Assembly: GCA_963716055.1 (NCBI GenBank)
Contig: CAVQSR010000001.1
Span: 838,791 to 902,790 of the forward strand
Origin: an uncultured Gemmatimonadales bacterium
Lineage (GTDB): Bacteria > Gemmatimonadota > Gemmatimonadetes > Gemmatimonadales > GWC2-71-9
Length of the DNA stretch: 64,000 bases
Direction of reading: 5' to 3'
Made by a program: the position numbers and the translations under genes. The notes under the pieces were generated by a model. It saw only the letters and a list, made by a program, of their open reading frames with translations, did no database searches and was not told the DNA's origin. Shown piece by piece: positions 24,468 to 62,472 of the stretch. The first letter of the stretch is position 1; each line of letters opens with the position of its first letter.

Positions 24468-24469
24468 CA

Positions 24470-24815: not shown

Positions 24816-24840
24816 TCGCTTGTATCTCGTGCCAGTCGAG

Positions 24841-24913
24841 AGCGGGAAACGGGACTCGAACCCGCGACCCCAACCTTGGCAAGGTTGTGCTCTACCAACT
24901 GAGCTATTCCCGC
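24841..24913 (-). tRNA. tRNA-Gly (anticodon GCC)
   Basis: RNA sense is GCGGGAATAGCTCAGTTGGTAGAGCACAACCTTGCCAAGGTTGGGGTCGCGGGTTCGAGTCCCGTTTCCCGCT. Anticodon loop is TTGCCAA. Confidence 0.93.
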
Positions 24914-24970
24914 GTCGCGCCTAATCTAACCGGCCGCCCCGAGCCTCCACCACCCCTGGGCTGGTCACCG

Positions 24971-25050
24971 GTCCGCCCCCGTCCGCCACTGTCCGCCGCC
25001 GTCCGCCCTTGCCCGCCACTGTCCGCCGCCGTCCGCCCTTGCCAGCCGCC
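24971..25050. repeat. Eight head-to-tail decamers GTCCGCCnnn, including a 30-bp unit duplicated with 1 mismatch, in the tRNA-Ala/tRNA-Gly spacer
   Basis: The units are gtccgccccc gtccgccact gtccgccgcc gtccgccctt gcccgccact gtccgccgcc gtccgccctt gccagccgcc. The 30-bp copies are 24981..25010 and 25011..25040. Confidence 0.85.
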
Positions 25051-25053
25051 GAG

Positions 25054-25126
25054 TGGAGGCGAGGGGAATCGAACCCCTGACCTCGTGAATGCCATTCACG
25101 CGCTCTCCCAACTGAGCTACGCCCCC
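25054..25126 (-). tRNA. tRNA-Ala (anticodon GGC)
   Basis: RNA sense is GGGGGCGTAGCTCAGTTGGGAGAGCGCGTGAATGGCATTCACGAGGTCAGGGGTTCGATTCCCCTCGCCTCCA. The G3:U70 identity pair is present. Confidence 0.93.
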
Positions 25127-37555: not shown

Positions 37556-38727
37556 CGCCCGTCCGGGGCGCCGGATCGGTGCGGGAGGTCGAGGCGCCGC
37601 AAGAGGCCGCCGCTCCGGTCCAGGGCGTAGAGGCTCTCTCCCGATACCGCCACCGACGAGACGAACCCGGCATTGCGGTCGAGCCCCATGGGCGCGAGAT
37701 CGCCTCCCGCCTGCTGGAGCAGATACAGTCCCTCCGGCCCGGCAGCCGCCGCGACGAGATTTGCCCAGACAGCGACATCGTACACGAAGCGCGGCTCCGA
37801 CCAGTGCGCCATCACGCGCGGCGCCGCCGGATTGCCGACGTGGACGAGGTACACGCCCTCGCTGCCCGCCGCCACGGCGGCCACCGTGTCGCGCAGGTCG
37901 ACGCGGCGCAAGGACCCCCGCAGGTCGACGCGGCCCGTGACCGCCAGCGGGCCGTCGGGGGCCGCGCGGTAGGCCCACAGGGCCGACTCCGTGAGCACCC
38001 ACAGCAGCGTGTCGTTTTGCCAGCGCAGGTCGGTCACCCGGTCGGCCGCGGTGGTGGAGTCGGTCCGCCACACCACCGAGTCCCCGCTCGCTTCGCCCAG
38101 ACGCAGCGCGGTGGCCGTCGCGACGGCGAGCCGCCTCCCGAGGGGCGCGATCGCCGCCACCTCTCCGCCCAGGACCCGGGTCCCGGGCGCCTCGCCCGCC
38201 AGGCCGTACAAATAGAGACCGGTCGGCGTGCTCAGCAGCAGCCGCTGGCGGTCCTGGTCCACGGCGGCATCGGTCACGTTGCGCAAACCCTGCCCGCGCC
38301 GCCCGAGGTACTCGAGGGACGGCAGCGCGGCCACGAGCTCGGCGCCCTCATCTCCCCACGCCGCCAGGAGCGCGCGATCGAGCGTGACGAATGTGGCCCG
38401 CGTCCGCAACGCCCGCGTGCGGCCCGCGAGGGTCAGGGGCGGGGCCGAGCGGTACCGCAACGCATAGTGCGAATCCGCCTCACGCCCGATCATGAACCCG
38501 ACGAGCCCTCCCACGGTCGTGGACAGGATGCCGACACACTCGCCGCTCGTGCACCATCCGATGGCGCGGTTGTGTTCGCCGGCGGAGTACACCGCGGTCA
38601 GGCCCAGTCCGACCGCCACGCCGAGGCCCGTGAAGAGCACGCGGCGGGGCAGGCGACCCTGACCGTCGAGGGTGACCGGCGCCGCCGCCGTCGCCGCGGC
38701 GAGGAGCGCGAGCGTGGCGCGTTTCAT
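37552..38727 (-). CDS. Hypothetical membrane-anchored protein with beta-propeller-like (LVIVD-like) repeats
   Basis: 391 aa. It starts MKRATLALLAAATAAAPVTLDGQ and has 2 hydrophobic segments. Repeated motifs are GLYLYGLAG, GVYLVHVGNPAAP, GLYLLQQAGG and SLYALDRSGG. Confidence 0.65.
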   Translation of the reverse strand: MKRATLALLAAATAAAPVTLDGQGRLPRRVLFTGLGVAVGLGLTAVYSAGEHNRAIGWCTSGECVGILSTTVGGLVGFMIGREADSHYALRYRSAPPLTLAGRTRALRTRATFVTLDRALLAAWGDEGAELVAALPSLEYLGRRGQGLRNVTDAAVDQDRQRLLLSTPTGLYLYGLAGEAPGTRVLGGEVAAIAPLGRRLAVATATALRLGEASGDSVVWRTDSTTAADRVTDLRWQNDTLLWVLTESALWAYRAAPDGPLAVTGRVDLRGSLRRVDLRDTVAAVAAGSEGVYLVHVGNPAAPRVMAHWSEPRFVYDVAVWANLVAAAAGPEGLYLLQQAGGDLAPMGLDRNAGFVSSVAVSGESLYALDRSGGLLRRLDLPHRSGAPDGR

Positions 38728-40982
38728 GGTGTCTCCACGACGCGCAGGGTGCGGTGCCGCAGGGCGATGCGACCGGTGCGCTGGTCGGTGACGGCGAGGT
38801 CGAGGTCGTAGGTCCCGCGCGGGGCGTTGGACAGGTCCACCGCGAGGTACACGGGCACGCGGTCACGGCCTTCGAGCGGCTCCTGCGACGTGTACTGCAG
38901 CACGACCTGGTCGTCCCCCTCCGCGGTCACGCCGACCGCGTCGAGGACGCCGCCAAAGACGCGCGCCGCGAGGCCGCCCCGCTCAATCTCGCGGACCCGC
39001 AGCCGCACCGCGACCTGGAAGCGTACCCCGGGTCCCACGCCGGCCGAGTCCTCGGGTGTGAGGCCGTAGACCTCGAGGTAGAGGTGCACCGGATCGCCGC
39101 GACGGAACTCGAGGCGCGGGTTCGGATCGATGAAGAAGTCGTGCAGGCCGCGGCCGCGGCTGTTCTCCTCGCGCGGGGCGATACGGTCCGCCACGATGAT
39201 ATCGCTGAGCGCGAGGGCGCCCGTGCCGAGGGCCTCGACCGTCATCGGGCTCATGCCCCGCGCGGCACGGTCCAGGGCGGGCAGCCGCGCTTCGAACCGA
39301 TACACGTAGGCGCCCGGGGGCACGCGCGCGGTCTCCGTGCGCTCCTCGAACTGGACGTCGGCCGTGAGCCGCACGGTCTCGCTGCCGCGCCTGGCCACCC
39401 GATCCTGCCGGCCGTCGTCGGTGACGAACAACGCCGTCTCGAGATCGCCGGCGTCGAGGTCCACGCCCTCGGCCATCTGCCGCACGGGTATGCCGGCGAA
39501 GAACAGGACTTCCGTTCCCCCGCTGTCATCCCGTGGGCGGAGCTGCGCGGCCTGCACGGGGATGGAGTCGAGACGCTGCGTGAGCGGCACGTTGTCGTAG
39601 GTCGCGGGCCGCACGAACCGCGCGTTTTCGGCATACGCGTCGAAATCGACCGCGAGCCGATGATAGTTGTACGTCGGTGGACCGGTGAAGACAAACCGCA
39701 GATTGCGCTCGGGATAGAACCACACCGTCGTCACCATGCCGGTCGCGAGGAGGTCAGCCGAGTTCTCGTACGGGCTGGGTGGGAAGGTGGCGATGACGGG
39801 CGGGGGACCGTACCGGATGTGGATCTGCCCGCGGTCGGTGAGCCAGCCCCGGAGCCGCAGGTCGGGCGCCCCGAACAAGAGCTCGGCGTGGGCGACCCGC
39901 GCCAGGTGCTCGAGGCGGTACTCGTTCTCGGGCGTGAGGCGCAGCGGCTCGGCGCTCCACCAGTAGAGGCGCTCGAACTGGCGCTGGGCCGAGTCCGCGA
40001 GACCGCGGTACGCGAGTGCGTCCGCCGCGCGCAGGATCGTGGACAGGTCCTCGAGGGGGCCCCGCTCGCTTGGGGGCAGCGTCGCGAGCGCCCGCGCGAA
40101 CGCGGAATCGGCGGCGGCCGCGCGGCCCGACCGCCAGAGGGCCAAGCCATAGAACAGGGCCGCGTTGCCGTTGTCGGGCGCGACCCGGGCGAAACGGCGC
40201 GCCTCGTCGAGGAGCTCCTCCATCCGTTCGGTTTCCGCCAGCAGCCCGAGGAGCCCGCGGTTCGCGGCCTCCGACACCGGCGCCGCGCCGACCGCCGAGC
40301 GATAGTGCTGCTCGGCCCTCGCGAGGTCGGCCTCGCCCAGCCCGGGCACCGGCGCCGAGTAGTCGAACAGGATGTCCTTGGTGTAGTGGGGGTCGCGCAG
40401 CGCGGCCTCCCAATCGAAGGTCTGCGCCGGTCCCAGCACGAGACGCCGCCGCGCCACCGCCTGATAGCGGCGGAAATAGATGTGGCCGATCTCCGCCTCG
40501 ACCACGGCCATGGCGGCGGGGTCCTCCGTGCGTTGCGCCGCCGCCAGGGCGCGGCGGAACAGGCGCTCGGCCTGGACTCGCAGCAGCGGTTGCTTGAGCC
40601 GGAGTCGGGCGATCTCGATCAGGTAGCGCGGGTTGTCCGCGTCGAGCCGGAGGGCCGCCTCGAACTCCCGGTCGGCGTCAATCCGCCGTCCCCAGGAGCC
40701 GAACCCCGCTCCGGCGGTGCGGGCCAGCAGCAAACCATAAAGGAAGCGCGCATCGGCGAGGTCGGGGGCCACACGGCTCGCGCGGGCGGCTCGGTCGACG
40801 GCTGCCGCCGTGTCGCCGCGCTCGGCCAGCTGCAAGGCCTGCTCCAGCAGGCGGCGGCCGTTCACGTGCGAGTCCGACTGGCTTTGGGCGACGAGCGACC
40901 CGCTCGCCGCGACCAACGCGAGCCCCAGCGCGATGAACGGCGCGGCGCGGCGCGCCGGACCCGGTCGCGCGCGGTAACGCAC
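38724..40982 (-). CDS. GWxTD domain-containing protein with N-terminal TPR region
   Basis: Track ORF 38724..41174. I prefer GTG 40982, which gives signal VRYRARPGPARRAAPFIALGLALVAASGSLVAQ. The 64 residues upstream are R/P/G-rich filler. GWxTD motif is LRGWLTDRGQIHIRYGPP. There is an ATGA overlap with the downstream gene. Confidence 0.8.
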   Translation of the reverse strand: MRYRARPGPARRAAPFIALGLALVAASGSLVAQSQSDSHVNGRRLLEQALQLAERGDTAAAVDRAARASRVAPDLADARFLYGLLLARTAGAGFGSWGRRIDADREFEAALRLDADNPRYLIEIARLRLKQPLLRVQAERLFRRALAAAQRTEDPAAMAVVEAEIGHIYFRRYQAVARRRLVLGPAQTFDWEAALRDPHYTKDILFDYSAPVPGLGEADLARAEQHYRSAVGAAPVSEAANRGLLGLLAETERMEELLDEARRFARVAPDNGNAALFYGLALWRSGRAAAADSAFARALATLPPSERGPLEDLSTILRAADALAYRGLADSAQRQFERLYWWSAEPLRLTPENEYRLEHLARVAHAELLFGAPDLRLRGWLTDRGQIHIRYGPPPVIATFPPSPYENSADLLATGMVTTVWFYPERNLRFVFTGPPTYNYHRLAVDFDAYAENARFVRPATYDNVPLTQRLDSIPVQAAQLRPRDDSGGTEVLFFAGIPVRQMAEGVDLDAGDLETALFVTDDGRQDRVARRGSETVRLTADVQFEERTETARVPPGAYVYRFEARLPALDRAARGMSPMTVEALGTGALALSDIIVADRIAPREENSRGRGLHDFFIDPNPRLEFRRGDPVHLYLEVYGLTPEDSAGVGPGVRFQVAVRLRVREIERGGLAARVFGGVLDAVGVTAEGDDQVVLQYTSQEPLEGRDRVPVYLAVDLSNAPRGTYDLDLAVTDQRTGRIALRHRTLRVVETP

Positions 40983-41482
40983 CGTCAGGGGCCGGGCCGG
41001 CTCGACGTTCCGTCGGGGCAACCGCCCTCCGGGCGCTGCGGGGATCGTCAATCGCGCGGGCGAGCCCCCCTTGCGGGGTCGTCCGGCGGCGGATAGCGTC
41101 GGGCCATTCGCCCGTCCGGGGGCGGGTGGTGCGCGGGCCGACACCCCTTGCGGGGTCCGTGATTCGCGTGTCACTATTTACCATAGCGTGCGGTGGGCAG
41201 GTCCGCTACTGCGCCACCGCACCTACCCACCGCCGTTGGTCAGTACCGCGCGCACGCGTGGAGTCGGATGTAGACCGCAGTCCGGACGCCGGGCGCTCCC
41301 CGGTTGCTGTCCGGGACATGCCGAGCCGTCGGCGCGGTTATCGCTCTCTCGAGGCCGTCGAGGGGTGCCGCGCAGATCTATAAAGTGACAATCGAGAAGT
41401 CCCGCGAGGGGCGGGGCAGTCGATCGTGTGCGAGCCCATTCGGGCGCGCGCCGACGGCGTTCTTCAGAAAGGGGTAGGCCCC

Positions 41483-44400
41483 ATGCGTTCACTGCTTGTT
41501 CGCATTGCGGTCGGTGCCTTCGTAGCCGCGGCGTTGGCGGCGGCGGTACCGGCGGTCGCCGACGCCCAGACCGGCAAGATCACGGGCGTCGTGCGCGACG
41601 AGTCTGGCCAACCGCTCGAAGGCGCGGAGATCTTCATCGAAGGAACGGGTCTGACGACGTTCACCGCGTCGAACGGCCGGTACTTCTTCCTCGCCGTGCC
41701 GCCGGGCACGTACTCCCTCATCGGGCGGCGTATCGGGTCCCAGACGGTGACCCAGCGCGGGATCGTGGTTTCCATCGACGTCACGCGCGAGGTCCACTTC
41801 ACCCTCGCCGGGGCCACCACCGTAACCCTGACGGAGATCGTGGTCGAGGCGCCGGCCGTGCCCCTCGTGCAGCCCGGTGTGTCCAACTCCACGATCGGCA
41901 TCTCGGGTGACGTGATCCGGGCGCTGCCGGTGGTGTCGATCGAGGGCGCGCTGAAGCTGCAGCAGGGGTTCCTGCAGGTGCCCGACAATTCCGACATCAT
42001 CTCGTTCAGTGAATCGCGCCGCAACGTGACCAACCCGATCCGCATCCGCGGCGGCCGGGGCGGCGAGACGCTCACGATGATCGACGGTATCCCCGTCAAC
42101 AACTGGATCTACGGCGGCGCGGCCATCGGCATTACGCCGGAAGCCGTGCAGCAGCTGGACTACATCAAGGGCGGCATGGAGCCCCAGTACGGCAACGCGC
42201 TCTCGGGGATCGTGAACATCGCCACCCGCGATGGCGGTACGGACCTGGCCGGCTCCCTGCGGTTCCAGAGCTCCGAAGTCGGCGGCTGGATGGGCAATGA
42301 CTCCGACGACCTGCTGAACTACAGCCTGCTCGACGGGTACATCTCGGGCCCGATCCCGGGCTTCGCCAACAAGCTGCGCTTCATGGTGGCCGGGCGGCAG
42401 CAGCGCTCCGCCGACGCCGTGTACCAGTTCGACAACGACGTGCGCGACCCCTCCTGCACGCAGCTGACGAACCCGAACTCCTGCTCGGGCAACCCCTCGC
42501 CGTTCCTGGGCGCGAACTTCATGGACGTGTTCGGTGGCTGGCGCGCGTTCGGCGCGAACAACCTGCGCGAGGTGTCCGGCAAGCTGACGTACTTCTTCCG
42601 GCCGACGATGAAGCTGGGCGTGTCGTACCTCGACAACCAGCAGCAGCGCCAGCCGTTCGACTTCACGTTCCTGCCCACCTACGGCAACCCGGTCGAGGCG
42701 CCGGTCATCGACAACCTGGCGGACTCGATCGCCGTGATCGGGAACCGGACGGGATCCCGTATCGCCCCGCTCGACTTCCCCAAGGTGGTGATGGGCTCGA
42801 TCAACGCCGGCCGCAGCCTCGCGGTCGCGCGGTGGGACCACATCCTCGGCCGGTCATCCTACACCCTGGCCGTGGGGCGACTCAGCCTCGAGCGTACGAC
42901 CTGCAACTTCTGGCAGGGCGTCTGTCTCCAGGGGAACTTCGGCGACCCGAATTTCACCGACGACCAGTTCATCTCGCCGCTGGCGGGAACCTGCCAGATC
43001 CACCCGACGTGCGGCACGGACTCGTTCTACGGCGGGGAAACGCTCAAGTCACTCATCTTCCGTGGCGACGTGCAGTCGCAGGTCACCGATCACCACCAGC
43101 TGGCCGCCGGCGGCATGTTCCTGCGCCACGACGTCACCCTCGACCTGCTGCAGAACGTCGGTGGCAACGAAGTCCGCGTCTATCCCCAGGCGTACGCCGC
43201 CAAGCCGTGGGACCTGGCGCTCTACGTCCAGGACCGGATCGAGTACGACTTCCTCACGGTCAAGCTCGGCGTGCGCTACGACCTTGGCTCGGCGGGCGGC
43301 ACTTTCTGGGCCAACCCCCTCGATCCCACCAACGGGACGACCGCGGCGGACGTGTGCGCCGATCCGTCCAGCTGGCAGGGTCGCACCTTCCCGGTGTACG
43401 ACGCATCCGGGGACTCGGTGTACAACCGCACGATGTCGGCCAACCCGGCCTGGGCCACCCAGCTGGGCCTCAACTGCGTCAACCTCGCGACGGGCCAGGT
43501 CGATGCGGCCACGCTCGACTCGGCGCGCCAGCTCGCGTCGTCCGACGACTTCAGCACGTCGAAGCAGCGCCGGCAGTTCAGCCCGCGGATCGGCGTGTCG
43601 TTCCCGCTGGGGCCGTCGAGTGCCGTGTTCTTCAATTTCGGGCGGAACACGCAGAACCCGCTCCTCAACAACCTGTTCGCCGCCACCGGCATCGGGACGA
43701 CCCGCGAGGGCACCACCGCCGGCCCGACGCTGCAGGTGCCGGGTGGCACGGCCGTGCCGTTCGTCGGCAACTCGAACCTGCTCACCGAGCAGACCACGAG
43801 CTACGAAGTCGGCTACGCGGCCGAGTTGGGCGGTGATTACGCCATCGGCGTCACGTTGTTCTCCAAGGACCAGATCGGTCTGACGGGCTTCCGGACCGGC
43901 GGGATCGTGGACGGCGTACAGGTGTTCGATCCCGGCGCGACGTACGCCGGCGACGAGACCCCGAATTACCGCATCCTCGTGAACCAGGACTTCCAGACGG
44001 TGCGCGGGGTCGAGGTGCAGCTGCGGCGCCGCGTGTCGAATTACTGGGGATTCGACCTCAACTACTCGTTCTCCGAGTCGCGCACCAATGCCGCCGACCC
44101 GGAGCGCGAGGTGGAGCGCCAGATCCAGCAGGGCGATCCGCGGCTGAATCAGGAAGTCACCTCGGAAATCGATCAGCCGCACGTGTTCAACGCGTCGCTG
44201 ATCTTCCAGACGGGCCGCAGCTACCCCCAGACGATCGTGGGGAAGGTGCTGGAGAACTTCACGACCAGTCTGGTGTTCCGGGCGGCGAGCGGGCTGCCGT
44301 ACACGCCGACGCTCGATTTCTTCGGCCTCGGCACGAACCAGCTGGTGCGCAATACAGGCCGCGCCCCGTCGACGTTCCAGCTCGACTGGTCGCTGTCCAA

Positions 44401-44644
44401 GGACTTCTCGCTGTCCAACATGCGGTACGGACTCACTGTTCAGGTGCTCAACGTGACCGACCGGAAGAACTGCATCCAGGTCTACACCACGACCGGGCAG
44501 TGCACCGTCGGCTCGGTGGACGTGTCGCGCAACCGCGAGGGCAACAACATCGCGGCCGACGCGATCACCACGACGTACCTGGACCGCGCGCAGTTCTTCG
44601 GCTCCCGCCGATCGGTGCAGGCCGGTCTCCGGGTGTCGTTCTGA
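41483..44644 (+). CDS. TonB-dependent receptor with N-terminal carboxypeptidase-regulatory-like domain (SusC/RagA-like architecture)
   Basis: Track ORF 41426..44644 trimmed to ATG 41483. Signal is MRSLLVRIAVGAFVAAALAAAVPAVADAQ. CarboxypepD_reg segment is GKITGVVRDESGQPLEGAEIFIEGTGLTTFTASNGRYFF. Plug segment is IRIRGGRGGETLTMIDGIPVNN. A long barrel ends ...QAGLRVSF. Confidence 0.9.
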   Translation: MRSLLVRIAVGAFVAAALAAAVPAVADAQTGKITGVVRDESGQPLEGAEIFIEGTGLTTFTASNGRYFFLAVPPGTYSLIGRRIGSQTVTQRGIVVSIDVTREVHFTLAGATTVTLTEIVVEAPAVPLVQPGVSNSTIGISGDVIRALPVVSIEGALKLQQGFLQVPDNSDIISFSESRRNVTNPIRIRGGRGGETLTMIDGIPVNNWIYGGAAIGITPEAVQQLDYIKGGMEPQYGNALSGIVNIATRDGGTDLAGSLRFQSSEVGGWMGNDSDDLLNYSLLDGYISGPIPGFANKLRFMVAGRQQRSADAVYQFDNDVRDPSCTQLTNPNSCSGNPSPFLGANFMDVFGGWRAFGANNLREVSGKLTYFFRPTMKLGVSYLDNQQQRQPFDFTFLPTYGNPVEAPVIDNLADSIAVIGNRTGSRIAPLDFPKVVMGSINAGRSLAVARWDHILGRSSYTLAVGRLSLERTTCNFWQGVCLQGNFGDPNFTDDQFISPLAGTCQIHPTCGTDSFYGGETLKSLIFRGDVQSQVTDHHQLAAGGMFLRHDVTLDLLQNVGGNEVRVYPQAYAAKPWDLALYVQDRIEYDFLTVKLGVRYDLGSAGGTFWANPLDPTNGTTAADVCADPSSWQGRTFPVYDASGDSVYNRTMSANPAWATQLGLNCVNLATGQVDAATLDSARQLASSDDFSTSKQRRQFSPRIGVSFPLGPSSAVFFNFGRNTQNPLLNNLFAATGIGTTREGTTAGPTLQVPGGTAVPFVGNSNLLTEQTTSYEVGYAAELGGDYAIGVTLFSKDQIGLTGFRTGGIVDGVQVFDPGATYAGDETPNYRILVNQDFQTVRGVEVQLRRRVSNYWGFDLNYSFSESRTNAADPEREVERQIQQGDPRLNQEVTSEIDQPHVFNASLIFQTGRSYPQTIVGKVLENFTTSLVFRAASGLPYTPTLDFFGLGTNQLVRNTGRAPSTFQLDWSLSKDFSLSNMRYGLTVQVLNVTDRKNCIQVYTTTGQCTVGSVDVSRNREGNNIAADAITTTYLDRAQFFGSRRSVQAGLRVSF

Positions 44645-44656
44645 GGCGTGCGGCTC

Positions 44657-44684
44657 GGCGGGTCCGGCGCAGGCCGGACCCGCC
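44657..44684 (+). terminator. Strong hairpin directly after the receptor gene (attenuator or processing site; no U-tract)
   Basis: GGCGGGTCCGGC-gcag-GCCGGACCCGCC forms a 12-bp perfect stem 13 nt after the stop. Confidence 0.4.
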
Positions 44685-44723
44685 GGCGCTCCGAAGCGGC
44701 TTCTCGACACGAGGATTCTGCTC

Positions 44724-47700
44724 ATGACGCTCCATCGTCCGTTTATGCGCCGTCCGGCGGCCGCGTGGCTCGCCGCCGCGTTGCTCCTGTTCTTCACCGG
44801 CGCGCTCACTGCCCAACAGACGGTCAACGGCTATCCCGTCGGACCCGATGGCGAGCCGGTGGCCAACCCGCCACGCCGCACGCTCGGCGCGGCGCGCGAC
44901 CGCGCCGTCTCCGACCTGCGCTCGGCCGGGTTCTTCACCCGCGTGTGCGCCGAGAACTCGACCGGCGCCTTCGACATCGACCGGTCCGGGTGCGCGCCGT
45001 TCTTCCAGACCATGAACAACGGCTTCGTGGCCGTGTGGCCGCGCGAAGCCGCGTGGGCCTGGGCGGCCCCGCCGACCACGTGGACCAACGCCGTGGCACA
45101 GGTGCCGAGCCTCGCCAACGCCATCGGCAGCGGCTGGACCGTCATCAACTCGCACCAGACCGGGTTCGACGACCTCGGGCCTTCCGACAACGGGCTGGGC
45201 CTGCACCACGCCGGCGTCACCACGGTCAACGACCGCAGCTGCCTCGACCACCGCACGTCGTACGGCACCGGCAACCCGCTGCTCGCGGGGAGCAACTGCC
45301 CGGTGACCTGGGGCACCGAGCCCGGGTCCGCGGTGCGCGATGCGAGCGACCCCGGCCGCGGCTGGGCGGGCGCGCGCCCCGTGCCCCTCGAGGTGTATTC
45401 ACAGCGGTTCGCGAGCCTGGGCGCCAACTTCAACTTCGACTTCTGGCGGGTTTCGGACGCCGAGCTCGACGCCGCGGGCGTGCCCGCGTTCAAGACGCTG
45501 GGCAATTTCCATACGTACGGCTACACCAGCGACTACAACGTCGAGATCCTGTGCGGCACGAGCGTCATCCGGAACTACGCCCACATCATCCCGGCCACGA
45601 GTCAGGTGGCCCCCGGCGGCTGCTCGGGGTCCGATCCCGCGCGGCGCCGCCCCGGCTGGCCGCTCGGCATCGAGGCGCGGTTCGACGCGTTCACGTTCCA
45701 GCTCCCGGCGTTGAAGGAAGTCCAGTACTACCAGGTGACCTTCACCAACCGGTCGGAGGCCGTGTACGGCGTCAAGCTCGATTACGACTCGGTGTACATG
45801 GGCCTGCAGATGGGCTGGTTCGGGAACTCCAACATTCAGCAGAACCCGACGTGGTGGGTCCCCGAGCTGGGCGCGGTGTTCACGTCAGCGCTCCCGATCC
45901 AGGGGCCCTGCGACGCGGGCCGCATCGTGTCCGATCTCACGTGCGCGCGCTGGGGCGCGAACTTCGGGTTCGTCCAGGGTGCGTCCGCCCTGATCGTGCT
46001 CAAGTCGCCGATCGGCGATCTGCGCAACAAGTGGTTCACCCGCATGGGCAGCGCGTTCTACGATCCGTCCCACCCGCTGGCGGGCGACACGCTGACGTAC
46101 AACCACGCGCATCTGTGCGGCTTCCGTAATTGCGGCCGTACGCAGTTCGCCACCGATCCGATCAACACGCCGGACCACGAGCAGCGCGGCTTCGGGCAGC
46201 TGTCGTCCACCGAGGTCAATACCCTGGGCAACCGCAACGTGACCACCGGACTCAACAACAACGAGTACTGGCACACGTTCCGCCCGCGCAACTTCCCCAC
46301 GGTGCGCTACACGCCGGGAGATCCCCCGTCCGTGGGCGGCGGCTACAACAAGTGGGCCCCCAACATGGCCGGCATCAACTGGGACTGGGGCGGTCCACCG
46401 GGATCGATGAACGCCAAAGACGGCGTGCAGGACACGTTGGCGGTCGACGGATGCTGGATCCAGGGCTGCGCCGGCCTCTGGGGCGACACCCTGCCCAACG
46501 GCAAGTACTCGGCGTACAGCAACACGCACGGCACCCTCGCCGTCGGCCCGATCCGGCTGATGGCCGACTCGGTCGTGTCGTACGTCGTCGCCATCACGCC
46601 GGGCCAGGCCAACGACTCCGCCGGTCTCATGGCGCAGGTGTCGGCGGCGATCGACAATTACATGAACTTCTACCTCGCCCCCGACGCGGCGCCCAAGTGC
46701 CGGATCACGGGCGTCACCCGCAACGCCGGCGCCCGGGCGCAGGACGCGGTGATTCGCGTAACGTGGGAGGACTCGTGTCATCCAGGGAACTGGACGGACC
46801 CGTTCCTCGACAAGCAGTACAACGACCTCCTCGCCGCGCCCGCGGGATCGCCGCTCGAGCGCTTGCGGCTCCTGAACCCGCGCCTCGACGATACCCTCGC
46901 GTTCCTGCGCGCGAACAACATCGCGAAGATCTATCTGTACAAGTCGTGCGAGGACGGCGCGTCGTGGACCACGGGGGATGACTGCATCGACGGCAGTCCG
47001 GCAACGGGCGCACCGTTCGACGTGCTCGGCTGGCTGCCCTACGCCACGTTTGAGCCCGGCAACATCCCGACGACCTACCAGGACCTGAACGTCCGGCCGG
47101 GGCAGACCTACACCTACAACGTCATCGGCGAGACCCGCGGCGCCAACTTCACCGTGCTCAACGGCGACTCGGTGGCGCTCTCCGGGACGGAATACATCTG
47201 CGCGCGGAACTGCCGCATCGAGACGCTGGCGCTCGCGCCGGTGCTGTTCAACACGCTGTCGGCGTCCACGGGCGAGCCCAACGTCGGGCGGGTGTACCTC
47301 CCGCTCTCGCTGCAGGGCGGCGGCTCGCGGGCGTCCGCGGCCGTGACGGCGCGCACCGGACCCGTGTCGGAGTCGCGGCTCGGCATCACGGTGACGGGGG
47401 ACTCGCTCAGCGACGCCAGCTTCCGCGTGCTGTTCGGCACCAGCGCGGCGGCCACCCAGATCGAGCGTTACACGGGGACCGACTCGGCCAGCGTGCAGAC
47501 GCGGGTCGTGCTGTACAACGCCGGCTCCCCGGCCGACAGCGTCGTCGTGTCGGGCGCGAACCTGGGCGGCCTCACCGCGAGCGGCGCGGCATCGGTCCGC
47601 ACGACCATCGCTCCCGCCGTGGACTCGGTCGCCTTCACGTGGGCCGCGGGTCCCGTCATGGCGCTGGCCCGGCTGCCGGGTGCCGCGCCCGCCGACGCGC

Positions 47701-48911
47701 TGCTCGTGTCCAACACGCTGACCGGCGACGCCGCGACGCCGGGCGGGTTCCACGGGAATCGCGACTACCCGCACTTCGACTTGGGCCTCAACAGCACGCT
47801 GCACACGCTGAATGGGACCGGCTTCAATCGGGAGGAGTTCCTGAACTCCGACAGCACCGTCGTGCCGCCGCTCGTCACCCCGACGGTCACGTGGCTCGCG
47901 GCTCGCGCGCTGCAGGATCAGGGCACGGGACTGAACGAAGCCTACGGCGACTACCGCATCAGCTGGGGCACCTACGCCTACGGCACCGGTGGCCAGGGCG
48001 GGCGCGACCAATTCGTGCTCGACTTCTCGAACCCGTCGGGCGCGGCCAGCCAGATCACCACGTCGCTCGGCGCGCGTGCCGCGGTGAGCACCGCGGTGGC
48101 CAGCGCGGAGGTCGCGACGGCGGTGCAGGCCGCGACGGGGGTCCCGACCACCGTCGACTCCCTCGTGGCGCTGAAGCTGCCGTTCACGGTGTTCAACGCC
48201 AGCTACAACCGGCCCGTCACGATCGCGATGCGCAAGCGGCCGGCGGCGGGCAAGTCGGTGGTGGTGGGCGGCAGCGCCGACACGATCCGCGTGGACGTGC
48301 CGGCGGACGCGTGGGTGCCGGGCGACACGATCATCTTCCTCGAGGCGGTGGGCGGCGGGCCGCTCGCGGTGACGTTCGAGCGGGCGGTGATCGGCTGCGA
48401 CGCGACGCGGTACACGCGCGAGTCGTGCAACCCGGTCTATCCCGGCACGCGCGGCTCGTCGGTGTACCTGAGCCCCGTCGCCGGGCAGTTCAACCGGGCC
48501 TCCTACCACGTGCCGGTGACGCCCGCGGCGGCGTTCACGCTGACGGCGACGAAGCCCGGCCGCGGGACGAACCTCACGTCGAACGCGGCGGCGATCCGCG
48601 CGGGTCTCGCCTCGGTGCGGGTGGTGCCGAACCCGTACGTCATGGTGTCGCAGTACGCCGGCAACGTGCTGCTGTTCACCCACATGCCGCCGCGCGGCAA
48701 CATCCGGGTGTACACGGTCGCCGGACAGTTCACACAGCAGATCAGCTGGACCGAGGCGGACCTCCGCGGCGACGGCGACCTCGCCTGGAACCTGCGCACG
48801 CGCGAGGGCAACGTGCTCGGCGCGGGACTCTACATCTACGTGCTGACCGCCACCGACGCGAGCGGGGCCACGATCGGCACTCGCACCGACAAGTTCGTGG
48901 TCATTCGCTAG
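44724..48911 (+). CDS. Very large secreted protein (1,395 aa) with T9SS type-A-like C-terminal sorting domain; N-terminal ~1,290 aa unrecognised
   Basis: Signal is MTLHRPFMRRPAAAWLAAALLLFFTGALTAQ. The C-terminus is VRVVPNPYVMVSQYAGNVLLFTHMPPRGNIRVYTVAGQFTQQISW...GAGLYIYVLTATDASGATIGTRTDKFVVIR. That is the Por_Secre_tail / FlgD-Ig pattern. Confidence 0.8.
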   Translation: MTLHRPFMRRPAAAWLAAALLLFFTGALTAQQTVNGYPVGPDGEPVANPPRRTLGAARDRAVSDLRSAGFFTRVCAENSTGAFDIDRSGCAPFFQTMNNGFVAVWPREAAWAWAAPPTTWTNAVAQVPSLANAIGSGWTVINSHQTGFDDLGPSDNGLGLHHAGVTTVNDRSCLDHRTSYGTGNPLLAGSNCPVTWGTEPGSAVRDASDPGRGWAGARPVPLEVYSQRFASLGANFNFDFWRVSDAELDAAGVPAFKTLGNFHTYGYTSDYNVEILCGTSVIRNYAHIIPATSQVAPGGCSGSDPARRRPGWPLGIEARFDAFTFQLPALKEVQYYQVTFTNRSEAVYGVKLDYDSVYMGLQMGWFGNSNIQQNPTWWVPELGAVFTSALPIQGPCDAGRIVSDLTCARWGANFGFVQGASALIVLKSPIGDLRNKWFTRMGSAFYDPSHPLAGDTLTYNHAHLCGFRNCGRTQFATDPINTPDHEQRGFGQLSSTEVNTLGNRNVTTGLNNNEYWHTFRPRNFPTVRYTPGDPPSVGGGYNKWAPNMAGINWDWGGPPGSMNAKDGVQDTLAVDGCWIQGCAGLWGDTLPNGKYSAYSNTHGTLAVGPIRLMADSVVSYVVAITPGQANDSAGLMAQVSAAIDNYMNFYLAPDAAPKCRITGVTRNAGARAQDAVIRVTWEDSCHPGNWTDPFLDKQYNDLLAAPAGSPLERLRLLNPRLDDTLAFLRANNIAKIYLYKSCEDGASWTTGDDCIDGSPATGAPFDVLGWLPYATFEPGNIPTTYQDLNVRPGQTYTYNVIGETRGANFTVLNGDSVALSGTEYICARNCRIETLALAPVLFNTLSASTGEPNVGRVYLPLSLQGGGSRASAAVTARTGPVSESRLGITVTGDSLSDASFRVLFGTSAAATQIERYTGTDSASVQTRVVLYNAGSPADSVVVSGANLGGLTASGAASVRTTIAPAVDSVAFTWAAGPVMALARLPGAAPADALLVSNTLTGDAATPGGFHGNRDYPHFDLGLNSTLHTLNGTGFNREEFLNSDSTVVPPLVTPTVTWLAARALQDQGTGLNEAYGDYRISWGTYAYGTGGQGGRDQFVLDFSNPSGAASQITTSLGARAAVSTAVASAEVATAVQAATGVPTTVDSLVALKLPFTVFNASYNRPVTIAMRKRPAAGKSVVVGGSADTIRVDVPADAWVPGDTIIFLEAVGGGPLAVTFERAVIGCDATRYTRESCNPVYPGTRGSSVYLSPVAGQFNRASYHVPVTPAAAFTLTATKPGRGTNLTSNAAAIRAGLASVRVVPNPYVMVSQYAGNVLLFTHMPPRGNIRVYTVAGQFTQQISWTEADLRGDGDLAWNLRTREGNVLGAGLYIYVLTATDASGATIGTRTDKFVVIR

Positions 48912-48924
48912 GAGGATGACGACC

Positions 48925-50031
48925 ATGTCGCGACATTCCGCTTCGCTTGCCGCCGTCGCCGTGCTGGTCGCGTCGGCCAGCTCGCTGCCGGCCCAGGGCT
49001 CGGGGACCGTGCTGCTCCCGGTTCCCGAGAATCCCACGACCCGCGTCGCTACCCGCGGCGCGAATTTCCTCGAGATCGGCGTCGGGGCGCGCGGGCTGGC
49101 GATGGCCGGCGCGTACACCGCCATCGCCGAAGGCGTCACCGCGCTCTACTGGAATCCGGCCGGGGCGGCCGACATCGAAGGGCCCTCCGCCGCGATCTCC
49201 ATCGCCGACCTGTACCAGGACGTCGGGATCACCCACAGCTTCGTCGGCGGCGTGCTGCCGCTGGGTGGGGCGGGCGTGTTCGGCATCGCCCTCTCGCAGC
49301 TGACGAGCGGCGACATCCAACGCACCACCGAGGAGTACCCCGACGGCGGCGACCCCGCCTTCGGCGACGTCTTCAGTTTCAAGGCGACCGCCGCCGGCCT
49401 GTACTTCGCCCGCCGGCTCACCGATCGCCTGGCGCTCGGTCTGGGCGTCAAGTTCGCGACGGAGGGCATCGACGACGCCAAGGCCAACTACGTCGGCCTC
49501 GACGTGGGGACGAAGTTCCGCACCGGCCTGTACGGGACGCACGTCGCGGCGTCGCTCTCCAACCTCGGCACATCGGGCCGCTACCGCGGCGCGGCGATCG
49601 AGCAGTTCTCGTTCGACCAGTTCCGGCCGGGCGCCACGCCGGTCGAGCTGTCGACCGACGAGCTGCAGATGCCCACCCTTTTCCGGTTCAGCATCCGTTC
49701 CGACGTGCTGGGGCCGAGCGACGCGCTGCTCGGGACCAACGAGCAATTCAACGTGCTCGCGGTGCTGGAAGCGACCGACGCGATCGACACCGACGTCCAA
49801 ACGATCCTCGCGGCCCAGATCTCCTACCGCGACCTGGTGTACGTCCGCGCCGGGAAACGCTGGGCGAACGAGAAGGAGACCCAGGACGTCCGCGGCTTCA
49901 GCCACGGCGCCGCGGTGGGCGGCGGGGTGAAGGTGCCCATCGGCCGCGGGTTCCTGGCGTTCGACTACGCCTATACGGGCATGAGCGACCTGCAGAACGT
50001 GCAGGTCTTCTCCCTCGAGTTCGGCTTCTAG
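48925..50031 (+). CDS. PorV/PorQ-family outer-membrane protein
   Basis: Track ORF starts at ATG 48916, but GGAGG (48911..48915) is optimally spaced for ATG 48925. Signal is MSRHSASLAAVAVLVASASSLPAQ. The family signature is GVGARGLAMAGAYTAIAEGVTALYWNPAGAA. It ends ...VQVFSLEFGF. Confidence 0.8.
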   Translation: MSRHSASLAAVAVLVASASSLPAQGSGTVLLPVPENPTTRVATRGANFLEIGVGARGLAMAGAYTAIAEGVTALYWNPAGAADIEGPSAAISIADLYQDVGITHSFVGGVLPLGGAGVFGIALSQLTSGDIQRTTEEYPDGGDPAFGDVFSFKATAAGLYFARRLTDRLALGLGVKFATEGIDDAKANYVGLDVGTKFRTGLYGTHVAASLSNLGTSGRYRGAAIEQFSFDQFRPGATPVELSTDELQMPTLFRFSIRSDVLGPSDALLGTNEQFNVLAVLEATDAIDTDVQTILAAQISYRDLVYVRAGKRWANEKETQDVRGFSHGAAVGGGVKVPIGRGFLAFDYAYTGMSDLQNVQVFSLEFGF

Positions 50032-50052
50032 GGCCGGAAAGGACTCCGACGC

Positions 50053-50757
50053 ATGAAAACGACCGTCGCGGCGCTCCTCGCCGTTGTCGCCCTCGGTGCG
50101 ACGACGTCGGCCGCGCAGGAGGCCACCCGTTTCCGCATCGTCCCTGTGGTCGGCGTGATGCGGTTCGACAAGACGTCCGCGCTCAACGCGCTCGACGGCG
50201 GGAAGTACTGGGCGTCGGGCGGGCTCTCGGCGAGCTACGCGGTGACGCCGGGCTTCCGGGCCGGCCTCTACCTCGAGTACCAGCGGCCCACCACGAGCTC
50301 CGAGTTCTATCCGTACGCGCTGTTCCGCACCGGCGCCGACTACCAGCTGTTCGGCGTGTCGCAGGTCGTCAGCATCCTGTCGTACGGCGTGGACGTGGCC
50401 TACCAGCTGCCCAACCGGTGGGGTCCCTTTGTCAAAGTCGGGCTCGGCCGGCACGCGGTGTACAGCGACGTGCAGGTGAACAACGCGACCGCGCACGTCG
50501 AAGGCACGCAGTTCGTGGTCGGCGGAGGCCTCAACTACACCTTCACCGAGGCCATCGGCGTGCGGCTCGAGCTGGTGGACTTCATGTGGAACGACTGGGA
50601 GCGCGACGCCCTCAACCCGGTGGATCCCGCGTACCAGAACAACACGTTCCCCGAGGACAACCCCGAGGGGATCACCTATTCCAAGCCGTCGCTGATCCAC
50701 AACATGCGCCTCGCCGTGGGGTTTTCCTTCGCGCCGTCGCGCAGCGCGTCGCGCTGA
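50053..50757 (+). CDS. Small outer-membrane beta-barrel protein
   Basis: 234 aa. Signal is MKTTVAALLAVVALGATTSAAQ. It shows an OMP_b-brl-like strand pattern (...VKVGLGRHAVYSD...GGGLNYTF...RLAVGFSF). Confidence 0.7.
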   Translation: MKTTVAALLAVVALGATTSAAQEATRFRIVPVVGVMRFDKTSALNALDGGKYWASGGLSASYAVTPGFRAGLYLEYQRPTTSSEFYPYALFRTGADYQLFGVSQVVSILSYGVDVAYQLPNRWGPFVKVGLGRHAVYSDVQVNNATAHVEGTQFVVGGGLNYTFTEAIGVRLELVDFMWNDWERDALNPVDPAYQNNTFPEDNPEGITYSKPSLIHNMRLAVGFSFAPSRSASR

Positions 50758-50779
50758 CCGAAATCGGGAGAGAACGCCA

Positions 50780-52609
50780 ATGCGCCTACAACGTTCATTC
50801 GGTTTCGCGCTCGCCGTCCTGGTCGGAGGCGCCTGCGAGCACGGCGAGCTCATCGAGGCCGTGTCGCGGGACGGTACGACCGGCATCCCGGCGATCGAGC
50901 TGACCACGGCGGCGGCGGGCGGTTTCCTGTCGGGCAGCCGCACCACGAACCGGTTCCTATCATCAGGGGTGTTCGACACGACGATCACCGACGCCTTCGG
51001 CCGGGCGACCACGAATCCGCCGTACTTCCGGGCCGATCCCAACCCGTTCTACGGCACGACGTCGCTGATCTACCTGCCCAACGCCGCCGGAGCGACGTTC
51101 ACGCCGCCCAACCGGCTGCTGCCCGCGCTCGCGGCCCCCGGTCGGCTGTTCAGCTACTACGGGTCCGGACCGAACGCGATCGCCTACATCGTCCCCGGCG
51201 GGCACGCCGGCAACGGTGCCGGCAACACCGTGTGGGAGGTCTGGATCAACGTCGACCAGCTGACCCCGGCCACGCGCTACATCATGGGGCTGGCCCGGTA
51301 CGCGCTCCAGGTGAACGGCGCCACCGACTGGGCCGAGTTGCTGCTGAACGGCACCGTCACGTCGCCGGACGCTCTGGTGTTCCGCACCGGCGATTTCACG
51401 CCGGCGGGGAAGAAGTCGGACGGCGTCTTCACCACGAATTGCGCCAGCGTCAACATCCTGCAGCCGACGGGCGGCGCCAACCCGCACCTGATCGCGGGCG
51501 GCACGACCGACGCCGGCGGCGGCGTCGAGTTCGACCAGACCATCTGCTCCAACGCGGCGTCGGCCTGGTTCAACGGCCTCGGTAACGCGCGGAGTCCCGT
51601 GCCGACGAACAACAACACGGCGCTGGGCCCCAATCAGTACAACTTCCTCGTGGTGTGGGAGGCGCTGGCCGACAGCACGCCGGACTACACGAAGCCCGTG
51701 TTCCGCATGCAGATCGGTCCGGTGCTGACCGCCGCCGGGGCGGTGGCGAACAACAGCTACGCGCCCATTCCCACGGCCGCATTGACCACCGCGCAGCTGG
51801 CGCTGCTGCCGGGCGCGACGGCGTCGCCCGATTCGATCAAGATCACGGCAAACAACCTCGTCCCGCTCGCGGCCGGCACGTCGTACCAGCTGTGGCTCGC
51901 GGAAACGGCGGGCGGCACGTTCGCCAAGGTGACGGGCAATGTCGTGCGGCTGAGCGGCACCGCCGTGGTGGACACGCTGTCCGGGGTGAGTGACTTCAAT
52001 CTGAACCCGGGGATGACGAGCGCCCGGGTCGAATTCGACTTCCTGCCGTTCCGGGGCGTGGCCTACAACGCCGCGGTCCTGGCTGTCGGGGCCACGGGCG
52101 CCGCGGCGATCCCGGCGGGGCAACCGCTGTGGACGCCGATGGTGACCCAGAAGGTCCCGGGTGGTGCCGTGCCCGTCCTGACGAGTACCCTGACCTTCGG
52201 CACCTTCGGTGGCGGCCAGAGCCGGGCGTTCGGCGCCGCCGGAAGCGCCAACGGCGGCATCTTCGGCCGCGAGCTGCGCCAGGACATCAAGCGCATTCCC
52301 CGCCCGCCCACCGGGTACGCGTACGAGGCGTGGCTGGTGAGCTCGACGGGCGCCACGGGGCCGCAGCACCTCGGCCCGTTGCTCTCTCCCTATCCGGAGC
52401 TGGCGCCACTGACCGATGCCGACGTGAGCACCGCTCCACCTGTTTCCGGCGTCGAGATCACCCAGGCGGCGCTGCGATACGAGGCGCCGAGCGCCGCGTT
52501 CTACTGCGATTGGGATCGGGTCCAGGTCCGGCTCGGGCCGAAGGCCGGCGCGGGAGCCGTGCCGCCCACGGTCGTGCTGTCGGGCGTCAATCCCCGGCGG
52601 GGATGCTGA
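50780..52609 (+). CDS. Probable lipoprotein, 609 aa, hypothetical
   Basis: It starts MRLQRSFGFALAVLVGGAC. The rest is Thr/Gly/Ala/Asn-rich beta-type sequence with no family recognised. Confidence 0.7.
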   Translation: MRLQRSFGFALAVLVGGACEHGELIEAVSRDGTTGIPAIELTTAAAGGFLSGSRTTNRFLSSGVFDTTITDAFGRATTNPPYFRADPNPFYGTTSLIYLPNAAGATFTPPNRLLPALAAPGRLFSYYGSGPNAIAYIVPGGHAGNGAGNTVWEVWINVDQLTPATRYIMGLARYALQVNGATDWAELLLNGTVTSPDALVFRTGDFTPAGKKSDGVFTTNCASVNILQPTGGANPHLIAGGTTDAGGGVEFDQTICSNAASAWFNGLGNARSPVPTNNNTALGPNQYNFLVVWEALADSTPDYTKPVFRMQIGPVLTAAGAVANNSYAPIPTAALTTAQLALLPGATASPDSIKITANNLVPLAAGTSYQLWLAETAGGTFAKVTGNVVRLSGTAVVDTLSGVSDFNLNPGMTSARVEFDFLPFRGVAYNAAVLAVGATGAAAIPAGQPLWTPMVTQKVPGGAVPVLTSTLTFGTFGGGQSRAFGAAGSANGGIFGRELRQDIKRIPRPPTGYAYEAWLVSSTGATGPQHLGPLLSPYPELAPLTDADVSTAPPVSGVEITQAALRYEAPSAAFYCDWDRVQVRLGPKAGAGAVPPTVVLSGVNPRRGC

Positions 52610-52637
52610 CGGGCTGACGGTCGGCCCGCGAGCGACA

Positions 52638-52678
52638 CCGCCCCGGCTTCCGTGAGGAGGCCGGGGCGGATTTTTTTT
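52638..52678 (+). terminator. Canonical rho-independent terminator
   Basis: CCGCCCCGGC-ttccgtgaggag-GCCGGGGCGG is followed by ATTTTTTTT. It starts 29 nt after the stop at 52609. Confidence 0.85.
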
Positions 52679-60539: not shown

Positions 60540-60669
60540 CCGCTCAGTTCCACCGGGCCGCCCCGCGGGCCCCCGGTTGTCAGCTCGGGGAAAACAGCGC
60601 GAGCGACAACGGGGACGAGTCCTTCGTCCCCGTCGAGGCCGCCTCCAGCCGCTGCGGCTGGCTACTCGG

Positions 60670-60725
60670 GCAAGATACGGGCGGTCCGGTACGTTGTCAA
60701 AACCCGTTGTGGCGTCGTATCTTGC
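60670..60725. promoter_or_regulatory. Symmetric divergent promoter candidate with back-to-back (T)TTG-N20/21-TATCTTGC elements
   Basis: Plus strand has GTTG (60693..60696), N21, then TATCTTGC (60718..60725), facing the 60774 gene. Minus strand has TTTG (60701..60698), N20, then TATCTTGC (60677..60670), facing dnaE. The two 8-mers are exact reverse complements. Confidence 0.4.
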
Positions 60726-60773
60726 GCCGTCAACGGTGGTCCGTGGGCGCGCCGGCGCAGGGGGGAGCTCGGC

Positions 60774-62471: not shown

Positions 62472-62472
62472 G

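Follow-up and report, generated by a model that had tools for sequence, protein, structure and literature searches.

A stretch of 64,000 nucleotides from an uncultured Gemmatimonadales bacterium (GenBank assembly GCA_963716055.1, contig CAVQSR010000001.1, positions 838,791 to 902,790 of the forward strand), with ~70% G+C throughout and referred to here as the window, was found to carry genes for a TonB-dependent receptor (gene i), a very large secreted protein (gene ii, hereafter the giant), a PorV/PorQ-family outer-membrane barrel (gene iii), a small outer-membrane barrel (gene iv) and a lipoprotein (gene v) in one tightly spaced, terminator-bounded set (Table 1). Five plus-strand open reading frames (ORFs) fill positions 41483-52609, with a third-position G+C of 0.89-0.93 in all five, and the successive gaps between them measure 79, 4 (13 to the next ATG), 21 and 22 nt, so the co-directional, closely packed arrangement described in an initial annotation of this DNA is borne out by both coordinates and spacing. 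That annotation was also right about the length of gene ii (1,395 amino acids), about gene iv as a 234-residue outer-membrane barrel and about gene v, which has a conserved lipobox and no family match, as a lipoprotein of no recognisable family. The ORF of gene i opens at a GTG at 41426 and its likely start is the ATG at 41483 (MRSLLVRIAV...).

Table 1. Positions of the five genes and associated features in the window (a slash marks a predicted signal-peptidase cleavage site)
Feature	Coordinates	Strand	Remarks
Divergent neighbour, 816-amino-acid GWxTD-domain protein	38724..41174	-	TIGR04514 50.6 bits (cut-off 28)
Upstream intergenic region, presumed operon promoter and 5' untranslated region	41175..41482	+	common to divergent gene 38724-41174
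Gene i, TonB-dependent receptor, Oar-type layout, 1053 amino acids	41483..44644	+	CarboxypepD_reg, plug, 22-strand barrel
Intercistronic G+C-rich stem-loop, 12-13 bp, without U tract	44657..44684	+	just past receptor stop codon
Gene ii, secreted giant, 1395 amino acids (150 kDa)	44724..48911	+	signal peptide residues 1-30 (...LTA/QQ)
Gene ii C-terminal domain, residues ~1301-1395	48624..48908	+	VVPNPY...G.Y...GKFVVIR motifs; type IX secretion system (T9SS)-type tail, distinct subtype (predicted)
Gene iii, PorV/PorQ-family outer-membrane barrel, 371 amino acids	48916..50031	+	signal peptide ends ...PA/Q
Gene iv, small outer-membrane beta-barrel, 234 amino acids	50053..50757	+	signal peptide ends ...AA/Q; PF13505 OMP_b-brl 40.6 bits
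Gene v, 609-amino-acid lipoprotein, tandem immunoglobulin (Ig)-like beta-sandwich domains (predicted)	50780..52609	+	lipobox; AlphaFold2 model
Intrinsic terminator, operon end	52638..52678	+	14-bp stem (12 G-C pairs), loop 4, then T8

The terminator that closes the set is real but it is not, as had been claimed, the sole canonical one in the window, because a second stem followed by a T tract lies at 22755-22794 on the plus strand (15-bp stem, loop 5, T5). The strong hairpin reported after the receptor gene was confirmed, as the 79-nt spacer holding it has a folding energy of -51.1 kcal/mol (z = -3.83) and none of 200 shuffled versions folded as well. A perfect stem of at least 9 bp, no more than 110 nt past the receptor stop codon, was seen in 21 of 56 related loci, compared to 1 of 280 coding control windows (0.4%), and the sequences of these hairpins are unrelated between loci; the hairpin is thus conserved in position and not in sequence. 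It probably uncouples expression of the receptor from that of the downstream genes, which would give it a regulatory role.

The gene order is conserved across Gemmatimonadota

The giant has 113 homologs, nearly all of them full-length and all annotated as hypothetical, and every match that carries a taxon name comes from Gemmatimonadota. A scan that took one genome per species yielded 78 loci, 76 of them titled as Gemmatimonadota (Gemmatimonadales, Gemmatimonadaceae, Longimicrobiales and Gemmatimonas spp.) and 2 without a taxon title. Neighbours were counted for those giants with enough flanking DNA. Directly upstream of the giant, 38 of 41 loci (93%) have a receptor homolog; directly downstream of it, 52 of 60 have a PorV-like gene. 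The small barrel is found in 47 of the 55 loci with context, and all ten of the fifth ORFs sampled by profile search encode a lipoprotein of the gene v family (379-639 amino acids, all with lipoboxes). Conservation of the five-gene order across the phylum had been put forward as a check on the initial annotation, and the counts bear it out; the recurrence of the same order in dozens of independent loci places the arrangement far beyond chance.

Many metagenome-assembled genomes (MAGs) hold two or three such loci, and tandem copies occur in L006, L032, L045 and L005/L026. Each giant was found to have its own adjacent PorV-like paralog, as had been suggested. Between loci (orthologs and paralogs taken together) the most conserved parts are the receptor (45-71% identity), the C-terminal tail of the giant (51-71%) and the PorV-like barrel (43-71%), while identity is lowest in the variable region of the giant (27-43%), in the lipoprotein (33-52%) and in the small barrel (31-55%).

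The receptor has an Oar-type layout and is not a SusC

Pfam matches to CarboxypepD_reg (63.3 bits), Plug (31.0) and TonB_dep_Rec_b-barrel (59.7), all above the Pfam cut-offs, give gene i the three domains of the "Oar architecture" of TonB-dependent transporters, as that class is defined in PMC6434023. The initial annotation had called the receptor SusC-like and without a SusD partner; the order of CarboxypepD_reg, plug and barrel and the lack of SusD both stand, but SusC/RagA membership does not, as the SusC/RagA model TIGR04056 gave 28.6 bits (cut-off 368.25) over residues 51-244 only, which cover the N-terminal extension and the plug, and the SusC/RagA signature TIGR04057 gave no match at E <= 0.1. 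Genes ii-v have no SusD-family match in Pfam or NCBIfam. SusD is an alpha-helical protein, similar to tetratricopeptide repeat proteins, and the all-beta, tandem Ig-like model predicted for gene v does not fit a protein of that kind.

A receptor from Gemmatimonadaceae, encoded at locus L072, served as the positive control; it scored 444.8 bits with TIGR04056 (cut-off 368) and 45.7 bits with TIGR04057, so the phylum also holds true SusC-type receptors. The gene for this bona fide SusC/RagA receptor (9709-12873, plus strand) lies 6.5 kb downstream of the giant locus in a Gemmatimonadaceae MAG. Membership of the five-gene locus in the SusC/SusD class of polysaccharide-utilisation loci (PULs) was rejected, having no model support.

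Gene iii belongs to a separate PorV/PorQ subfamily

Gene iii passes the PorV_fam model NF033709 (122 bits, cut-off 90), with residues 46-371 aligned to the full model (1-326), and the solved structure nearest to a profile of 12 gene iii homologs is Flavobacterium johnsoniae PorV (6h3i_F, E = 4.1e-5), so the family originally assigned to gene iii holds. It falls below the cut-offs of the equivalog models for PorV (NF033710, 26.6 of 250 bits), PorQ (NF033711, 42.7 of 220) and PorV2 (NF052325, 74.1 of 325), and the gene iii profile gives 26 bits on F. johnsoniae PorV itself. Gene iii is thus a member of a separate PorV/PorQ subfamily, one which travels with the receptor and the tailed protein.

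BamG was tried as an identity for gene iii and rejected, there being no BamG match while PorV_fam was passed; a PorT-type identity for the small barrel of gene iv was also rejected, as no model supports it.

The giant ends in a predicted T9SS-like tail of a distinct subtype

The C-terminal domain of the giant, which is the best-conserved part of the protein, matches in NCBIfam the C-terminus of PorZ (E = 5.8e-7) and that of PorU (E = 7.7e-5). When 22 tails of the family were compared with these models, 21 matched both PorZ and PorU and 20 matched TIGR04183 (E <= 1, best 8e-5), and a tail profile run against the PDB found PorU (6za2, residues 1085-1154) at E = 0.0074. The tail thus has homology, through PorZ and PorU, to experimentally established T9SS tails. 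Across 104 sequences P1302, N1303 and P1304 are invariant and G1368, Y1370, K1390, F1391, V1392 and I1394 near-invariant, and the domain has the position and motifs of a type-A tail, being at the extreme C-terminus of a protein with a Sec signal peptide and having the PNP, G.Y and K..[VI][VI][KR]-end motifs. Genes ii-iv gave no match to the type-B tail models TIGR04131 and PF13585 or to PorP/SprF barrels. The tail is therefore a distinct subtype akin to T9SS tails, with the uncleaved tails of PorZ and PorU as its nearest relatives.

A search of 1.84 billion representative proteins with the tail profile gave 100 matches at E <= 1e-30, all giants or fragments of them, followed by a long run that reached 7,035 at E <= 0.001, which makes the tail a sharp subtype within a broad fold family. 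In the 1.19 Mb made up by the window and the loci the subtype occurs on giants only. Immediately upstream of the full giant gene of L009 there is a 173-amino-acid ORF (9719-10237, plus strand) with a complete giant-type tail (114 bits), which may be the remnant of a second, broken giant.

Related trios are found in other lineages

The tail search also returned complete proteins of 717-1228 amino acids from low-G+C organisms. At three loci the tailed protein lies between a receptor and a PorV/PorQ-family or PorV-like barrel in the order seen in Gemmatimonadota, with gaps of 10-136 nt (L082, GCA_054040215.1, 33% G+C; L083, JGI 3300009105, 44% G+C; L084, GCA_029932675.1, 47% G+C, with flagellar genes nearby). 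A fourth lineage, represented by L079-L081 (ENA metagenome assemblies ERZ247901xx-ERZ247909xx, 51% G+C), has the three components in a different order. The small barrel was not seen in these non-Gemmatimonadota loci. The core trio thus occurs outside Gemmatimonadota as well.

When the profile of the Gemmatimonadota PorV-like proteins was run on the corresponding genes of these loci, those of L082, L083 and L084 scored 176-200 bits and that of L079 scored 89 bits; as genuine PorV scores 26 bits, the former three and their Gemmatimonadota counterparts form one subfamily. Tails from the two sides align strongly (hhalign probability 99.9%, E = 1e-33) and the bodies of the tailed proteins only weakly, so the conserved unit is receptor, tail and PorV subfamily, with the body of the cargo free to vary. 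No Pfam family was found in the four non-Gemmatimonadota relatives, and a PDB profile search gave one marginal Fn3-like match only.

Some of these loci hold further tailed proteins. L082 has a Peptidase_C11 protein with a Por_Secre_tail, and L079-L081 have two true TIGR04183 proteins, one of them an ExeM/NucH nuclease. The trio of L083 is flanked, at 363-3878 and 13002-16409 (both minus strand), by a second CarboxypepD_reg receptor and by a 1135-amino-acid protein with weak FlgD_ig and Por_Secre_tail matches, which suggests clustering of such modules.

The giant and the lipoprotein fall outside annotated families

The giant can be divided into a cysteine-rich conserved body (residues ~130-870, including an Fn3-like module), a variable stretch (~870-1100), a beta-sandwich region and the C-terminal domain. 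A profile of 104 giants recovered the same 112 proteins and one tail-only match, and no wider family emerged from that search. In 20 members no Pfam family was found except FlgD_ig on the tail, and no sequence homolog was found in the PDB. An AlphaFold2 model of residues 32-1200 was predicted with good scores (predicted local distance difference test, pLDDT, 87.8; predicted template modelling score 0.79), and when this model was searched against the PDB with Foldseek no match was obtained at E <= 0.001, the best hits being tandems of fibronectin type III domains and, weakly, a glycoside hydrolase family 94 (GH94) phosphorylase (template modelling score ~0.12). About 11 cysteines, arranged in close pairs, are invariant or near-invariant across the 104 sequences (173, 192, 396, 465, 470, 577, 582, 742, 754, 1225 and 1235), and the alignment also contains many conserved Asp and Gly residues and conserved Asp-rich loops.

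Gene v has 40 homologs; its lipobox Cys19 is near-invariant and Cys576 and Cys609 are invariant. Its AlphaFold2 model (pLDDT 88.9) is predicted to be all beta, with tandem Ig-like domains, for which Foldseek gave generic tandem-Ig (Fab-like) matches only; a weak RskA_C-like motif was seen and no family match. Thus neither the giant nor the lipoprotein has a Pfam family or a significant match among solved structures.

The predicted signal-peptidase-I sites of genes i-iv all consist of Ala followed by Gln (ADA/Q, LTA/Q, LPA/Q and SAA/Q), and Q31 is near-invariant across the 104 giants. These sites resemble the Bacteroidetes "Q-rule" (N-terminal pyroglutamate), which has been reported not to be general across the Fibrobacteres-Chlorobi-Bacteroidetes (FCB) group (PMC5837995).

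Surroundings of the locus

The locus is flanked by housekeeping genes (KdtA, ATP synthase subunits, an M23 peptidase, methionyl-tRNA synthetase, PSP1, AccA and DnaE). No sigma-70 consensus or promoter site was found in the upstream intergenic region, and no Rfam riboswitch or leader was found upstream of the receptor at E <= 1. The GWxTD gene is divergent upstream of the receptor in L001, L002, L004, L005, L022, L023, L028, L029, L043, L057 and L078 also; this position is kept in the orthologous subset of the loci, and in paralogous loci the gene is elsewhere or absent. It is at most a candidate member of the system.

Elsewhere in the window there is a cluster of six tRNA genes (24393-25126, minus strand), and a seventh (20563-20636, minus strand) sits inside the plus-strand ORF 19718-22066 (782 amino acids), which has no family match and is a doubtful gene. 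At 57084-62705 on the minus strand a stop-to-stop ORF, 1874 codons long, matches DnaE (DNA polymerase III alpha subunit) over residues 722-1869, and the true start codon probably lies ~720 codons into this ORF. In a Longimicrobiales MAG (L035) the giant locus has upstream of it a 1956-amino-acid ORF (123-5990, minus strand) whose composition is of the coding type and which matches no NCBIfam model.

A proposed role in nutrient capture at the cell surface

We propose, with moderate confidence and by analogy, that the giant is a surface protein docked via its uncleaved tail on a cognate PorV-like barrel beside the receptor, the whole forming a PUL-like nutrient-capture module. The giant would reach the periplasm via Sec, fold there with several local disulfides and cross the outer membrane by a T9SS-type route. 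It would then stay on the surface with its C-terminal domain uncleaved and docked non-covalently on the adjacent barrel, precedents for which are PorZ with PorQ, PorU with PorV, and the type-B tailed proteins that sit on PorP/SprF-like barrels; the tails of PorU and PorZ are retained to bind PorV and PorQ, and cognate PorV-like barrels have been proposed to shield tails from cleavage (PMC10202324). If the PorV-like barrel sits beside the receptor, the giant may overhang the receptor and capture or present a substrate for TonB-energised import by the receptor. Substrate specificity would be set by the parts that diverge fast (the variable region of the giant, the lipoprotein and the small barrel), and the paralogous loci of one genome would serve different substrates, like the PULs of Bacteroidota. 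The type-A tailed hydrolases in some of the other-lineage loci (Peptidase_C11 and the ExeM/NucH nuclease) fit a function in nutrient acquisition.

Several observations weigh against this proposal. No binding or catalytic domain can be recognised in the giant, nor does it have an invariant set of His, Glu or Ser residues that would suggest an enzyme, so its role in substrate capture is purely what we infer. Regulator, SusD-like and hydrolase genes are absent from the Gemmatimonadota loci, and about six giants (in L007, L009, L012, L018, L039 and L042) have no recognisable receptor, PorV-like barrel or small barrel beside them, those of L007 and L009 following instead a different set of three genes with ORFs of 305-796 amino acids. 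The tail had been described as following the T9SS type-A pattern, and while the motif pattern stands, membership of the curated families does not, since it scored 15.6-15.9 bits with TIGR04183 (cut-off 23) and 15.8 bits with FlgD_ig (cut-off 27) and gave no match to PF18962 at E <= 10; aligned by hhalign with one bona fide type-A tail it reached a probability of 5.9%. Neither the scanned ORFs of the 64-kb window nor the large flanking ORFs (1.19 Mb) included SprA/Sov, PorU, PorZ, PorK/L/M/N or GldK/L/M/N. When T9SS core proteins were sought among all ORFs of at least 800 amino acids in the window and the 78 loci, the search brought up DnaE, a glycoside hydrolase family 65 (GH65) enzyme, a helicase, the true SusC and an unassigned ORF of 1956 amino acids, and neither SprA nor PorU. 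In the literature an older census has the T9SS only in Bacteroidetes (PMC4793230), and a further source states that it "may also be present" in Gemmatimonadetes (PMC11285876).

With its Fn3-like and beta-sandwich modules, Asp-rich loops and variable exposed region, and with no catalytic signature, the giant could alternatively be a structural or adhesive protein of the surface (S-layer-like, or involved in cell-cell or cell-substrate contact) that is anchored by its PorV-like partner, the receptor being merely co-transcribed or acting as a scaffold and importing no ligand bound by the giant. Cognate barrels anchor large adhesins with type-B tails, SprB among them, in this way (PMC9143113), and giants that stand alone do exist. 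We nevertheless consider a coat or adhesin unlikely, because the receptor is the best-conserved member of the set and keeps its place directly upstream in 93% of loci as well as in three of the four other lineages, and because, with several paralogous copies within a genome and with hydrolases in related loci, the picture is closer to that of nutrient loci.

In the main rival reading, the same trio might instead be a self-contained, T9SS-independent pathway of export and anchoring that does without the SprA/GldKLMN machine, in which the Oar-type barrel, powered by TonB-ExbBD, would let the tailed giant out across the outer membrane, its tail being received and held at the exit by the PorV-like barrel. 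Oar itself, with the same layout of CarboxypepD_reg, plug and barrel, is required for secretion of the protease PopC in Myxococcus (PMC6434023). The strict order of receptor, cargo and PorV-like barrel in three distant lineages besides Gemmatimonadota would fit such a pathway, as would the restriction of the tail subtype to proteins of such loci and the lack of any T9SS core gene near any locus among the large ORFs scanned. However, a giant of 150 kDa with at least five conserved close pairs of cysteines points to a folded, disulfide-bonded intermediate in the periplasm whose passage through a 22-strand barrel would be difficult, and some giants have no adjacent receptor. Other-lineage loci hold ordinary TIGR04183 tailed proteins, suggesting a general T9SS in those organisms, and a T9SS may exist in Gemmatimonadetes as well (PMC11285876); export by the receptor therefore seems to us quite improbable.

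Since the best family matches of the tail are the C-termini of PorZ and PorU, and its partner is a PorV/PorQ-family barrel, the giant and gene iii could also be the local equivalent of PorZ-PorQ or PorU-PorV in a Gemmatimonadota T9SS attachment complex. This we regard as highly improbable, as the match is confined to the last ~100 residues, no peptidase or beta-propeller domain was detected in the giant, two or three diverged copies per genome together with tandem duplicates are unlike a housekeeping part of a machine, and the constant receptor partner would be left unexplained. PorZ and PorU were rejected as identities of gene ii on whole-protein scores of 21.6 bits (PorZ cut-off 260) and 14.1 bits (PorU cut-off 420).

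Lastly, it is scarcely credible that the barrel of gene iii and an extracellular canopy help to insert or mature the neighbouring large barrel, in the manner of BamG-BamH in F. johnsoniae, where the FadL-type barrel BamG docks on BamA and anchors such a canopy (BamG and BamH being conserved in most FCB phyla; PMC12611786), for although the PorV-like partner in L079 has a faint BamG match (E = 0.0089), gene iii has none and passes PorV_fam, BamH is a lipoprotein and not a tailed protein, and a chaperone kept in one copy for each receptor paralog would be unusually costly.

Of the overall interpretation first offered for the locus, the conserved unit, the PorV family, the dedicated paralog and the lack of a described equivalent have stood, and the SusC-like receptor and the curated type-A tail have not. 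Gemmatimonadota are abundant in the soil and water metagenomes that hold these loci and their cell-surface biology is little described. The module was present in almost all of the lineages sampled, frequently with more than one copy, and two of its five proteins, one of them of 150 kDa, belong to unannotated families. If the docked giant is as we propose, the principle that a cognate barrel keeps an uncleaved tail would extend from type-B substrates and PorZ/PorU to a type-A-like tail, contradicting the current view of a single PorV for all type-A tails, and a class of nutrient-uptake locus would be defined outside SusC/SusD in which the receptor is served by a barrel-anchored giant. As culturable Gemmatimonas species have related loci, both T9SS-type sorting outside Bacteroidota and the pairing of Oar-type receptors with tailed proteins become directly testable questions.

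Comparison with known systems

The components of the locus are of known kinds, in that the receptor is TonB-dependent, the barrel belongs to the PorV family and the tail is T9SS-like. In the literature searched we found no description of the arrangement of receptor, giant and PorV-like barrel, in agreement with the initial annotation, for which no equivalent was known, and no relevant paper on Gemmatimonadota or Gemmatimonas with PorV, T9SS or SprA. Not described there are the conserved operon, a PorV subfamily that is cargo-specific and serves a type-A-like tail, the receptor as a constant partner and the two unannotated protein families.

The BamG-BamH pair of the Bacteroidota barrel assembly machinery is similar in having a FadL/PorV-type barrel beside a larger barrel and in anchoring an extracellular canopy (PMC12611786), but its canopy protein is a lipoprotein, its function is to insert proteins into the outer membrane, and gene iii does not match BamG. 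Oar of Myxococcus xanthus, which acts in PopC secretion, has a domain layout identical to that of gene i, a likeness at the level of layout, but the available part of PMC6434023 notes no PorV-like or tailed partner for it, and a role in export is for our receptor a rival hypothesis only.

PULs, which consist of SusC/SusD with surface glycan-binding proteins and in some cases include T9SS-secreted enzymes, resemble the locus in co-encoding a receptor with surface-exposed accessory proteins, in occurring as several diverged paralogous loci per genome and in having exposed parts that diverge fastest, and the tailed hydrolases of the other-lineage loci add to this likeness. Unlike in PULs, the receptor passes neither the SusC/RagA model nor the signature, the locus lacks a SusD-like gene, a regulator and a glycoside hydrolase, and the accessory protein would be anchored by its tail via a barrel and not by a lipid.

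In the T9SS attachment complex of Porphyromonas gingivalis, PorZ-PorQ and PorU-PorV have a retained C-terminal Ig-like domain seated on a PorV/PorQ-family barrel (PMC10202324); the tail of the giant matches those of PorZ and PorU best and the neighbouring gene iii belongs to the PorV/PorQ family. The body of the giant is unrelated to either protein, however, and here the pair is multi-copy and preceded by a receptor (38/41), the PorV subfamily is a separate one and docking on the barrel is what we infer from the known pairs.

The type-B pairs, such as F. johnsoniae SprB-SprF and P. gingivalis PG1035-PorP, likewise link the gene of a cargo to that of its own outer-membrane barrel. Their tails are uncleaved and anchor the cargo, many paralogous pairs occur per genome, and the tailed substrates are genetically linked to, dependent on and anchored by their cognate PorP/SprF shuttles and anchors (PMC12618676; PMC9143113). 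The locus differs from them in its type-A-like tail, its PorV-family barrel and the receptor within the unit, so the resemblance would be one of function and not of membership. All type-A tails are held to use a single PorV shuttle (PMC12618676), and a cargo-specific PorV paralog, as gene iii is proposed to be, would therefore be new.

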